A stretch of 62,744 nt of DNA, filler included, from Rhabdomonas costata (lineage: Eukaryota), in NCBI GenBank assembly GCA_019059605.1. It is 34 parts of 34 records of this genome, joined end to end, with 100 filler letters (N's around TTAATTAATTAA, not from the genome) between each part and the next. Parts side by side here need not be neighbours in the genome. Positions count along the whole stretch, not along the records: positions 40,670 to 42,417 come from JAHMHO010009644.1; 33 more parts are not named here. One strand, given 5' to 3'. The notes under the pieces were generated by a model, which was not told the origin of the DNA, did no database searches, and saw only the letters and a list, made by a program, of their open reading frames with translations. Positions 236 to 61,797 of this stretch are shown here, one piece after another. The translations under genes were made by a program, and so were the position numbers. Every line of letters begins with the position of its first letter. Position 1 is the first letter of the stretch.

Positions 236-564
236 GTGACGTTCAACCAGTTCGTGATGGCGCCCGAGCGGGGCCCCCGGGAGTGGTTCCACGAGACGGC
301 TAGTGGCACCCCAGACGTCATCGCGGCGATGTTTGGGCGCAGCTTTGACCTGACTGCGGAAGTCCCGTGGTACGCCGTTGAGGACGGCGAGGAGGAGGAT
401 CCGGAGCACGGTCAGGCTGAGCTGGAGCGGAAGTACAGGCAGGCCGTGCCTGTCGTGGCGTCGGCTTCGCTGCAGACGTATGGACACACTTTGGCTGTGC
501 ATGTCCGTGTGTTTGTTTGTCCCGTCCTCCCCAGAAAAAACTCACCCTACCAAGAACACAGCGT

Positions 565-41148: not shown

Positions 41149-41949
41149 GTGCTCCCCGGGGAGGACGCTGTGCAGGCCACTATCGACGGTCTCTTGCAGG
41201 AGCGCGAGCGCCGAGTGGAGGCGATACGCAAGGAAGTGACCTTCCTCAATCAGGTGGGTGTCTCGCTTGATCTTCTCTTTGCTGACGCCCTTCTGCTCTT
41301 TCACGCTGTTCTCGGGGTTCTCCTTGCCAAGAAGAAGATGACCTGAGGATCCCAGGCAGACAAAGAGTCGAGAGAGGCCAGCGAGTGTTAAGCAGAGTGG
41401 GCGAGCGCAGGGGGTTGGAGCTGCTTTGAACCGCGTTGTAATGCCCCAGTGAGGTTTCCCAAGAACCTCCGCCCAGCAGCAGAGGGGTGATCCGTACCCC
41501 GAGAAGCGGCCAGGCAGCGGGAGAGCATTTGAAATCCCGCTGGAGGCAGAAAGACCTCCACCGAAACAATACCTTGTACGCGCGCGCGCGTTTACGCCGC
41601 GTGTGTCGGGAGCCAAATGCCGTGAGAATTGTAAGAGCTTTCCTCTGCACCAGGCGCCCTAAATGGGGTGTCGCACTCGATGCATTGTGTCTGTGTGAAC
41701 TGTAGCATAGTGGGGAGGGGGTGCCGTCGTGCGGTGCCAGGGGTTTGTTTATACGGGAGGAGGGTGAGGGACGGGCCAGTTATTCTCATTTCCAATTTTT
41801 CTCACCAGACCGTGAAAAAAATTGAGGAGATCGAGGCGGCAGCCAGGCTCCAGCACGAAGGGGGGCACACCCAGATCGTGACCTTCATTGAAGAGCTGCA
41901 GCCCAGGATTGCTGGCCTCCGCGAGGAACTGCGGCGATGCAGGCAGCAG
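41149..41949 (+). CDS. Coiled-coil hypothetical protein (exons about 41149-41253 and 41809 to about 41949)
   Basis: ...KEVTFLNQ|TVKKIEEIE... joins in frame across the GT-AG intron 41254-41808. Outer boundaries are uncertain. Confidence 0.65.
41278..41580 (+). repeat. Intronic structured repeat, copy B (most complete)
   Basis: Stems TGGGCG/CGCCCA, GAGGTT/AACCTC, GGGGT/ACCCC, CAGCGGGA/TCCCGCTG and TGGAGG/CCTCCA. Homologous to copies A and C. Confidence 0.9.
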
Positions 41950-51338: not shown

Positions 51339-52653
51339 CGCTTGCAGGGGCGTGTCCTTTCGCATAAAATATCTGCTTGTCGTAAAAGCTTTACTGCATG
51401 CCAGCCCAGCGACGTGCTCGTTTTTCCTGTCCTCTTGAGTGTTCGCGGGTGCACGGTGCCCCAAGAGCACCATCAGTCCTTGGTGTCACCACGCGCCCAC
51501 CACTGTATTGCCTCTCGTGTGGGCACGCAATTCTGGAAGGGCGCCTCACCCTCTGGCGCAAACATAACACCGCTTTTTCAGTGCTTGTGTGTACCGTATG
51601 TACCGAGTTTTCGCTGGGAGGGGAAGTTGGCAGTGCTGGCAACGATACCAACAAACNNNNNNNNNNNNNNNNNNNNNNNNNNNNNNNNNNNNNNNNNNNN
51701 TTAATTAATTAANNNNNNNNNNNNNNNNNNNNNNNNNNNNNNNNNNNNNNNNNNNNTGTTTGTGGGGCGGGACGGCAGCTTTCACACTCTTTTATCCAGT
51801 GTGACAATGCACGTCACGTCGTTCACCCAGAGAATTGACATGGTTTCCGAAGATTTCACGCAGAAGAAAAGTTCTGAGTTTACGACGTGACGTGCATTGT
51901 CACACTGGATAAAAGAGTATGAAAGCTGCCGTCCCGCACCACGAACGCAAACAAACCAAGCTCCAAATGTCAGACTTCGTAGTTCGTGGCCGCTCGGAGT
52001 ACACCTGCGGACAGAGGGTGAGGCACTTGCACCGAGAGAGAAAGGAAGGCTATTGCCCACCTCGCAAGATCGAAGTGCAGTGACGTGAAGGCGGAAAATA
52101 TACCATTGCAAAATGCTATCACCGAGAGTCAAGAAGTAGAGCAAAGCTACCTTTCCGCATGGTGCAGTCCTCCCGAAACGTTGCGGTTGCTTTCATTCAT
52201 CGGTTCCACTCCACGTCTCAAGTCCGCTTGTCCGTGATCCATGAACAAATTCTGTCCATAACTATGTCTCATCTGCCTATCCTCGCTCACCGCTGTGCAC
52301 GCCCCCCCCCCAAAAAAAACGATGTTTCCGATAATGCTGTGCAAGTTACTTTCAGCAGATTGCCTGTGAGGTTGTGTGGTGATGCTTTTTTAGTCTTCAA
52401 GTAAAAAAGGCAGTCTTGCTCCAGTTCCAGCGAAGTATTTCTCGATACATCACAACCGCCGCACAAGTTTCTCCCCCAAACCTCAACAACCCACCAACGA
52501 GGACCCGACCTGATGCCTCTAAAAAACCCCCAGTACATCCTCAAACCCCCGATCATCACCAAATATCATCGCCCCTGTCACCGAAGAACATATCCCTCAG
52601 ACAACCACACTGGCACGGGAAGGGAGAAGTAGGGGGGGGGTTCTCCCGCTAAC

Positions 52654-59370: not shown

Positions 59371-60499
59371 GTTGACGTCCACGTGCACATGTCTGCTGGG
59401 TTTCCGGCGAAGTGCCTGATGGACTTTTTCGCACAAAAGGTGCCTCGCCAATCCCCTCCACCATTACACAGCCCCTGCCCTGCACTGACAGAAAGAGCGT
59501 GTGTGTGTTTGTGTGCGAGTGAGAGAGAGAGAGAGATCTGTCTGTCATTATCATTAGTCTCGCGACTGCTCGAGACTCCGGTCATTCTTCAGGCAACGTA
59601 TGTCCCCAACCTGGCACCTGCTGACCCCCAAGTTTCACAGGGGAAGACCTGGTTGACCCAGAGCTGCCTTCAGCCTAACACCTAATCGAGACTAGGTGGT
59701 TGACCGTGATACAGATTGGAGCCGATCTCGTTGTCTGACAGTATCCATGCCAGTGTTTACTCTTGGCACCCAACTCGTGTGTGTGTGGTCACTCCTCCTT
59801 GCCAAGTGCACCAAGTGTGTGTGCTCACTCCTGTTCAGGTAGGTATGACGCTCAAACACACTTCACGTCCGTCGTGGGCTCGTGGTTTTTTTTCCCTACA
59901 AGCACGCACAGTTTTCCTTTGCGCACACGCTCACCCGCTCACGGGTACTCTCTGAACGGGTGGCTTGCCGCAGGTCCACAACCACGGTGGGGATATAGTG
60001 CTGAAGTCTGCCGATGGGAACCCGCTAACGTTGTCCGAGTTTATCGCGGAAAACAATCTCCGAGTGGAAGAGTTCGGTGTGCTTTGTGTGCATGAACAGC
60101 TGGAATGGCTGGTCATGTGTGTATGCATTCAAGTGAGTACCTTGATCCGTCACTTGGAGACAGGGCCTGGCTGGATCGCGACAACTTCCCTTTCTATGGG
60201 GACGGAGCTGACTTCATTTTCCGAAAACGAGCGTATTGAAATAGGACGTGGGACGATTTCAGTGCCTGAAAGGAGTCTGTGCCAAATTTCTCACCTGCTC
60301 ACCCAAAACAGTCAAATTTGTGCAGGAATTGTGCGAAGCCAGCTCTTGTTTTGCTCCTCTCCGCCTTCACTCCATTCTTTAATAGATGCTCATGCGGTGG
60401 CGGCGAGTAACTTTGAGCAGCAAGCCGACAGCACCGCCGCGAAGCTCCGCAGCTTGCTGCTGCACGCGGACAATTACATGGGGGGCCGGTACTACGCAG
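59371..60499 (+). CDS. AMP deaminase-like protein (exons 59371-59439, 59974-60076, 60386-60499)
   Basis: VDVHVHMSAG (metal-binding HxH), LTLSEF and LRSLLLHADNYMGGRYYA motifs. Confidence 0.85.
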
Positions 60500-60584
60500 G
60501 TGTGACTGTGGGACTTGTGCTGATGTGGGGGGACTACTGGGGAGCAAGTCCTCTCGGGGTGCGGGCCGGTCACCGTTGTTGCCT

Positions 60585-60860
60585 TTTGCTGATCTGTCTT
60601 ACTGCTTTTTGTTCGTCGAACGTTTTCTCCGAACTGAGATAGGGAGAGGATCTGATAATTCCAGGCAGCAGTGGCGAAGAGAGACCCCTGAGCCATACTC
60701 TCTCTCGAACGGTTGCATGCTTCACTGACGCTTTTCAAAATCCTTCGCTCAGCAGCAGAAGGGTGATCCGCCTTGAGAAGCGGGCATGCTGAGACAGGAC
60801 ATTTTTAAGCCCGCGGCTGGCGGAAAATGCCTCCACCTCAAGCAATGCGCTGTGCACATA
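60585..60860 (+). repeat. Intronic structured repeat, copy C (diverged)
   Basis: TTTGCTGA...CCAGGCAG...GTGGCGA...CAGCAGCAGAAGGGTGATCCG...GAGAAGCGG...CCTCCACC is colinear with copy B. Confidence 0.85.
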
Positions 60861-61797
60861 TGTTTGTTTCGGGAGGATTCGGTGGAACCAAAACCCNNNN
60901 NNNNNNNNNNNNNNNNNNNNNNNNNNNNNNNNNNNNNNNNTTAATTAATTAANNNNNNNNNNNNNNNNNNNNNNNNNNNNNNNNNNNNNNNNNNNNTTGA
61001 TCCTCTCTCCATTTTACGAGGTCAAGGCAAGATCAAGACACGCACAATTACTCAGTGTTGTTTGCATAGTCTCTGTCAATACTCGAAACTCATTCAGCAA
61101 AACGACCATCTGTATTTTCGGTTTGGAACTCCAGACGCTAAAATAGGAACGGATGTTATTGCTTCATTTTTTCTTTAGTTCTCATCGACCTTAACGTACA
61201 AATTCATTTTCGAAACACGGACAATATTTCCAGAACCCAGCTGCTGAAAAAATTTGCGTAAACACCAAAAATGTCAACAATCGGGTGACAAGAGTTTTTT
61301 GTCGAAAATGCTCTCATGCACTTGTGATGAGGATAGCGATTCGGCTAGTTACCCACGTTAGCCTCGACGATTATGTAAACAAGTAAATGTCAGTGGTTAA
61401 TGCACTGGTTCTTGTTGATTGTCATTCGGGGATCTTCGTCAGAGATCAGAATGTGTTAAACCTCGCATCGCGCAGGCGCAAAATAAAAACAAACTACATT
61501 TTCTCTTTACGACCAAGGGTATGTGGGTGGATGGCTCTGAATAACTGAAAGAAGATATTAGAGATATAGGAAATGGAAAAACAGGATAGGGAAAGCACGC
61601 TACGAGGGCGTCTGCTCAGCCGAAGAGTAATGGAAGCTAAGATACATTCGCCCTTTTATGAATAATTACGAGAACTCATCTGTGCTGTTGTGTCTTGTGT
61701 TTGTTGTGAATAATTATGAATTTAGGCGCTTTGACCCATTCTAGTCGCCCGAGGTAGACTTGCATCGAACTTGGATTCATTGGGTGGTTGTGTATAG

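Follow-up and report, generated by a model that had tools for sequence, protein, structure and literature searches.

Shortened intronic copies of a GT-targeting, probably non-autonomous retroposon in the genome of Rhabdomonas costata

The window, i.e. the whole 62,744-nt stretch of Rhabdomonas costata DNA analysed here (assembly GCA_019059605.1), consists of 34 contigs, unrelated to one another and each about 1.75 kb long, joined by linkers and drawn from an assembly of 97 Mb in 104,289 contigs. An nhmmer search with a family profile identified three homologous copies of one element, designated A, B, and C, all on the + strand (E-values of 1.5e-27, 2e-86, and 2.6e-27, respectively), with no fourth copy in the window. 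The three diverged copies in the same + orientation that an earlier note on this DNA had described were thus borne out. Copy B (41312–41582, +; model positions 866–1135, aligned by nhmmer over 41312–41579) corresponds to the final ~270 nt of the element and reaches its fixed end, where the tail has decayed to (CG)n. It lies in a predicted GT-AG intron of 555 nt (41254–41808, +), with open frames on both sides in phase 0; its earlier placement in an intron of a + strand gene agrees with this intron between two in-frame coding stretches.

Copy A (610–778, +) is truncated and internally deleted; its nhmmer-aligned core (610–745) matches model positions 919–1057, and the decayed remainder to about 778 was read by eye. 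The sequence contains a (GT)n tract at both its variable end (563–607, +) and its fixed end (777–797, +). The host intron opens with a GT donor at 478–479 (+), and the preceding coding segment (233–478) scored 32.9 on the + strand versus 8.8 on the − strand with a codon model. Copy C (60640–60863, +; model positions 882–1142, nhmmer and alignment) is more diverged and, according to the alignment, lacks about 28 nt, including the 5' arm of a previously proposed outer stem. A likely GT donor is found upstream of it at 60500–60501 (+), the acceptor falling past the contig end, and the coding segment by this donor scored 16.8 on the + strand. The donors at 478, 41254, and 60500, and the distances of 163, 143, and 171 nt from them to a GTGG(G)CGA landmark, had been read correctly; the starts first given for B and C took in ordinary intron DNA, the aligned starts being 41312 and 60640. 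Two short motifs recur in copies A, B, and C, respectively: CAGCAGCAGA at 719, 41474, and 60750, and GTGATCCG at 731, 41487, and 60763. Beyond what had been described, the element has a fixed end with a (GT)n tail, flanking GT tracts, and a longer parent.

The copies had been thought to share the landmark, two invariant motifs, and stems that vary in sequence yet still pair. The landmark is homologous between A and B, but its apparent match in C, the GTGGCGA at 60671, is a non-homologous motif that aligns about 35 nt further upstream in the nhmmer alignment, C having lost the landmark segment. Because the 5' arms are non-homologous, the outer and downstream stems of C do not represent covariation, and its loop stem alone holds one apparent compensated pair. 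Both motifs are indeed present in A, B, and C, but neither is invariant family-wide, with CAGCAGCAGA exact in 26 and GTGATCCG in 15 of 67 copies. Compensatory changes in the five stems stood at chance level (2, 1, 0, 4, and 2 observed versus 1.3, 1.3, 0.9, 2.8, and 1.6 under independence), and the broken pairs in all five likewise matched the expectation under independence. Stem positions changed no more slowly than others (0.109 versus 0.135, p = 0.3) and RNAalifold gave no consensus pairs among 34 copies, so that the covariation sought in the earlier note was not found by either approach. Folding was no better than in shuffled sequences (z of +1.07 for A, −1.38 for part of B, and −0.19 for C), including B at 41330–41582 (z of −0.52). 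Rfam yielded nothing above chance in the window, in 15 long-copy loci, or in 5 head-bearing or B loci.

A, B, and C are not conserved structured RNAs. Neither the suggestion of an intron-encoded ncRNA nor that of a splicing-related element placed at a constant spacing from the donor was supported: copies decay like neutral DNA, show no covariation, vary continuously in length, and occupy scattered intron positions. The distance from the upstream coding segment to the fixed end ranged from 87 to 1250 nt (median 330; n = 33). Moreover, an introner supplying both splice sites was rejected, as the flanking coding segments are 5–1158 and 2–905 nt away.

The high copy number proposed earlier holds for the genome as a whole, where the element is dispersed in some 400 copies or more. 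With copy B as the query, 485 first-look candidates were obtained, 40 of them scored. A 21-nt motif near the fixed end gave 165 matches with at most two mismatches (control, 0) and is present in 18 of 43 independently found copies; from these values, we estimate a family of about 390 copies, a lower bound, because more divergent copies, A and C among them, escape the motif. No copy was found in 40 systematically chosen large contigs (143 kb), so the three in the window are a lucky draw. Divergence from the majority sequence had a median of 13% (range 8–30%; n = 74) with no codon periodicity, and at least three subfamily haplotypes were distinguished. In 8 of 138 loci (L008, L021, L067, L083, L089, L097, L099, and L114), a second, overlapping copy was observed in the same orientation, a frequency far above that expected from genome-wide density, which may reflect hot-spot introns or local re-insertion. 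Metagenome contigs contained no exact match to the element; a single viral-contig match was discarded, as it was a 20-mer within unrelated sequence.

The two ends of the element behave differently. The fixed end was reached by 93 of the 109 copies with room past model position 1000 (a motif close to this end had served to select part of them), and it continued into a GT tract in 73 of 94 copies. The variable end was scattered: 61 copies, collected by the terminal motif, started anywhere in model positions 741–1085, with a median length of 150 nt. The 30-nt 5' flank was GT-rich in 49 of 82 copies and CA-rich in 0 of 82, whereas 3.8% of randomly placed windows are GT-rich. At the variable end, microhomology averaged 0.92 nt versus 0.34 nt expected (n = 24, with a GT run abutting the element). 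For exact target duplications, the 4 cases among 87 copies were not significantly above the controls, which averaged 1.1 and reached at most 5. Mismatch-tolerant ones were in modest excess among 83 copies, with 5 versus 1.1 expected at a score of at least 8, and 12 versus 4.7 in a second comparison; the clear cases are 12–16 nt long and start in the GT run. If the RNA corresponds to the + strand, as we infer, the element undergoes frequent 5' truncation from the fixed end, and it inserts into (CA)n/(GT)n microsatellites (49/82 5' flanks, 73/94 fixed ends). The fixed end, the scattered truncation, and the GT target support the earlier suggestion of a SINE or non-autonomous retroelement, and A, B, and C are very probably dead, shortened copies of a retroposon of some kind.

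The longer parent was recovered as a unit of about 1.35 kb with no recognisable protein. As the copies were followed upstream, candidates fell from 485 to 65, 16, 4, 3, and 2, and the 1136-nt profile was extended by a head of about 200 nt held by two loci only, L077 and L182, whose heads are 73% alike. In both, the head directly follows a fixed-end piece (93 nt and about 35 nt, the latter carrying a deletion), which in turn follows a GT tract. This head-to-tail junction, a partial tandem or pseudo-LTR, was therefore present in 2/2 head-bearing contigs, a small sample in which one contig is heavily deleted. Since two heads that are only 73% alike carry the same junction, it was probably already in the template. 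In the head itself (L077:380–460, L182:460–515), alternative hairpins or a simple pseudoknot are possible, in two copies with no Rfam match.

No Pfam family was detected in six frames of two copies, a coding reading of the unit had a best atlas value of 0.77 with no credible homologue, and a search of 1.84 billion protein representatives returned one weak low-complexity match only. The protein-coding reading was rejected given the absence of Pfam families, the lack of codon periodicity, and an internal duplication that is out of frame. This duplication involves a module of about 200 nt, whose two versions are 73% alike at a spacing of 316 nt. Unlike the region first singled out, these modules are the best-folding parts of the unit (z of −3.7 and −4.6, majority sequence). 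In three module stems chosen by eye, both partners were substituted in 3 of the 17 pairs and pairing is kept in all 17; run on both modules jointly, RNAalifold predicted 3 pairs only and did not recover the by-eye stems. The modules begin like a hammerhead core, with CTGA(T/C)GAG. A hammerhead core also has GAAA and a cleavage triplet in register; here they are not in register, there was no Rfam match, and this reading was rejected. Another repeat piece (L035:1060–1152, L051, and L105) is joined to the element at model positions 440–476 in two of these loci; in the third, it occurs by itself in an intron. This may indicate a chimeric subfamily or 5' co-mobilisation.

The sense orientation seen in the window extends to the whole family, with 70 of 74 copies (~95%) in the orientation of the host gene. 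Host strands were called with a codon model trained on element-bearing contigs, for which 75 of 138 loci were callable, giving 71 sense and 4 antisense calls; stricter cut-offs gave 48/49 and 25/25 sense. For the final count, the host strand of B was set manually and L077 was excluded, its "exon" being the element head. In control contigs (43 called of 71), (GT)4+ and (AC)4+ tracts on the sense strand numbered 28:17 overall and 16:5 between coding segments. The orientation of the element exceeded this bias (Fisher p = 1.2e-5 and 0.023, respectively), as it did for (GT)3+ between segments (p = 5.6e-5). The strand bias of GT tracts therefore accounts for part of the orientation only.

The − strand of the element is rich in pyrimidines and carries 4.75 acceptor-like sites per kb, versus 0.18 on the + strand and a background of 1.7. 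At least one strong acceptor would be present in 40 of 84 short copies if reversed, versus 1 of 84 as placed, according to a crude acceptor model trained on the most pyrimidine-rich candidates. The bias thus likely results from selection against reversed copies carrying cryptic 3' splice acceptors. However, all eight copies without a good antisense acceptor were also sense (a small sample), which acceptor selection does not predict. A rather doubtful alternative is that the near-absolute orientation is set at insertion, through strand-specific, transcription-dependent integration by Penelope-like elements (PLEs) into genic GT repeats, possibly with capture of short fragments of the element RNA at its fixed 5' end, and with an ~18-nt terminal motif, common to the autonomous element and the non-autonomous family, as the recognition signal. 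The polarity would then be opposite to that of ordinary target-primed copying. A literature search on orientation bias found nothing.

Candidate enzymes are encoded in the R. costata genome, which contains N-terminal GIY-YIG PLE proteins of the Chlamys type. A GIY-YIG fragment (L248) shares 37% identity with a protein of 1417 aa that combines an N-terminal GIY-YIG domain with RT and Josephin domains, the layout given for Chlamys-1_cBra in the available part of PMC8557442. With this protein as the query, 33 matches were obtained among 190 genome candidates, the best with 49% identity over 490 uninterrupted residues, and some Penelope-like matches keep RYIDD/RFIDD intact. No copy of the element was present in the 71 RT loci examined, out of 150 PF00078 loci scored, nor in the 18 GIY-YIG and 28 PLE loci examined. 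Its 3' end matched no autonomous PLE in the 28 PLE loci, on contigs mostly too short to hold PLE ends. A two-block motif (5 + 9 nt, 14 nt in all) is common to the fixed end and the terminal region of one PLE family, where it runs antisense to the PLE ORF in the + orientation of the element; it was noticed post hoc, in 2 loci of this one family.

The terminal region of a Chlamys-type PLE (L285:143–311, L284:1–166, and L293:837–882) lies both after the ORF end and before an ORF start, as a pseudo-LTR, and includes a candidate GT-AG intron of ~45 nt. Another PLE fragment (L288:1385–1432) is followed by (CCCTAA)n on its sense strand. An inverted, truncated copy at the 5' end of the element was observed in four loci, all at contig ends, where fold-backs are common in controls (6/40 and 6/34), and was not taken as PLE evidence. 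Imperfect fold-backs terminate about 15% of contigs (6/40, 6/34, and 5/30), so an inverted repeat at the end of a contig of this assembly is not trustworthy as biology. The genome also holds RLE-type and APE-type LINE ORFs, as well as RT fragments unlike gypsy and LINE types (L221, L231, L265, and L267–L269), which we take to resemble tyrosine-recombinase (DIRS/Ngaro-type) elements.

Taken as a whole, the explanation that we favour, with moderate confidence, is a new family of non-autonomous retroposons, probably mobilised by PLEs. A Chlamys-type GIY-YIG endonuclease and RT acting in trans, an identity suggested by the genes above, would nick a (GT)n/(AC)n microsatellite. Element RNA, presumably of the + strand and ending in a short GUGUGU, would pair with the nicked (AC)n strand. 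Copying would proceed from the fixed end and mostly stop early, leaving a 5'-truncated copy whose new end may join the upstream flank through 0–3 nt of microhomology; rarely, it would run through a head-to-tail template and yield a partial tandem (pseudo-LTR). After insertion, copies would decay neutrally, the hairpins being relics of an active master. The sense excess would arise partly from the orientation of GT tracts in introns and mostly from the purging of reversed copies with cryptic acceptors.

Membership among non-autonomous Chlamys elements is likely on three structural grounds, namely the 5' truncation, the microsatellite target, and the partial tandem. According to the available text of PMC8557442, Chlamys PLEs show 5' truncation, partial tandems, (CA)n and (C)n targets, non-autonomous partners, and no canonical hammerhead; the part of 10.1101/2022.05.23.493040 at hand describes new insertions as intronic, microsatellite-targeted, and of 128 bp in median length. 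As far as these two sources go, MRC1 and Chlamys-N4_cRei of Chlamydomonas reinhardtii are similar non-coding, intronic units. The element shares with such PLEs heavy 5' truncation (median of 150 nt versus 128 for Chlamys; 10.1101/2022.05.23.493040), a partial head-to-tail tandem, a dinucleotide microsatellite target, the lack of a canonical hammerhead, and target duplications that are hard to see (PMC8557442; 10.1101/2022.05.23.493040). It differs in that no 3' end shared with an autonomous family was found in the 28 PLE loci, in its host, a euglenid-type protist, and in its 95% orientation bias, which the portions of PMC8557442 and 10.1101/2022.05.23.493040 available to us do not report for Chlamys. 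Non-LTR retrozymes, as partly described in 10.64898/2026.07.22.740005, are also non-autonomous, tandem-prone, and PLE-associated, with modules starting CTGA(T/C)GAG. Unlike them, the element has no complete type I hammerhead, and retrozymes are reported there to be excluded from introns. Trypanosomatid SIDER/RIME/NARTc elements, extinct short non-coding euglenozoan retroposons in transcribed regions, have a conserved 5' hallmark, duplications of 11–19 bp, and locations in 3' UTRs in the available text of PMC2323293; the present element is 5'-truncated, GT-targeted, and intronic, and SIDERs are only a loose analogue.

A possible but unlikely alternative is that the copies are 3' tails of an RLE-type or APE-type LINE that targets GT repeats, or of a SINE with the same tail, the junctions being chance second insertions or one rearranged subfamily. 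The fixed end, the truncation gradient, the microhomology, and some 12–16 nt duplications would suit target-primed reverse transcription, and RLE-type and APE-type ORFs occur in the genome. The accessible portion of PMC3812793 describes AC-repeat-targeting LINEs (Mino and Waldo), and the microsatellite LINEs covered there (MinoAg1, Waldo, Kibi, Koshi, and Dong), with their SINEs, share with the element a fixed 3' end in a simple repeat, one orientation, and 5' truncation. In contrast, the element has a head-to-tail junction and extends over ~1.35 kb without an ORF or a match to an RT, an endonuclease (APE or RLE), or any Pfam family; no examined RT locus carries its tail. Moreover, the same junction was found in 2/2 head-bearing contigs that are only 73% alike, directly adjacent second insertions occur in only a few of 139 loci, and Rfam detected no tRNA, 5S, or 7SL head in head-bearing or other loci.

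It is improbable that the element RNA is instead the − strand, the fixed end being its 5' end and the copies short 5' pieces or extended PLE "tails" lying antisense to their hosts. Stop codons are depleted on the − strand (6 versus 14.6 in shuffles; 1/1000), an ATG lies about 15 nt from the fixed end, and the 14-nt motif shared with the PLE terminal region then has the same orientation. Chlamys targets are given as (CA)n, the − strand view, in the part of PMC8557442 available, and the 35–93 nt pieces in L182 and L077 resemble a 30–40 bp PLE tail. Against this, the open frames match no protein, the PLE motif was matched post hoc in 2 loci of one family, and G-U pairs and the module folding z-scores slightly favour the + strand. 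Priming would have to occur at variable RNA 3' ends with 0–3 nt of pairing, for which no precedent was found in the literature as partly covered here.

A rolling-circle DNA element (Helitron or Replitron type), whose origin end would be fixed while its termination varies, is very improbable. In its favour are the head-to-tail junction, a hairpin close to the fixed end, and the Helitron-like GIY-YIG proteins that the genome encodes, but both ends occur in only 2 of ~400 copies, break points are scattered, and variable target duplications occur. Helitrons keep both defined ends and make no target duplication; they are also defined by TC...CTRR ends, and none were found here. Nor does the element have short terminal direct repeats like those of Replitrons in the portion of PMC10288648 available. 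Finally, a conserved structured RNA encoded in introns, or a splicing element, for which intronic position, the sense orientation of 70/74 copies, several possible stems of 5–7 bp, and a purine-rich + strand might speak, is scarcely credible and already largely refuted by the absence of covariation and consensus pairs, stems that are no slower to change (p = 0.3), continuously varying lengths, scattered positions, and the lack of an Rfam match.

Two further repeats were observed in the window. In the contig of copy C, positions 59519–59826 (+) belong to a second, unrelated family that ends in a GTGCAC-like motif and a GT tract, and that matches 10 element-bearing loci, 8 of them in the orientation of the element. 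At 51771–51933, a 163-nt near-perfect inverted repeat, whose Rfam miRNA hairpin score was far below threshold, may be MITE-like or represent the paired ends of a non-conventional intron.

The available portion of the PLE survey PMC8557442 makes no mention of euglenids, and that of the euglenid draft-genome paper PMC8219788 contains no transposon terms. Our literature search found no report of PLEs with a non-autonomous dependant in euglenids, although a relative may be listed in the supplementary element library of PMC8557442. The present analysis removes a false ncRNA candidate and points to Chlamys-type PLEs with a non-autonomous dependant in a euglenid-type genome. Moreover, the 95% orientation bias offers a handle either on the purging of cryptic acceptors in an organism with both cis- and trans-splicing, or on the mechanism of PLE integration.
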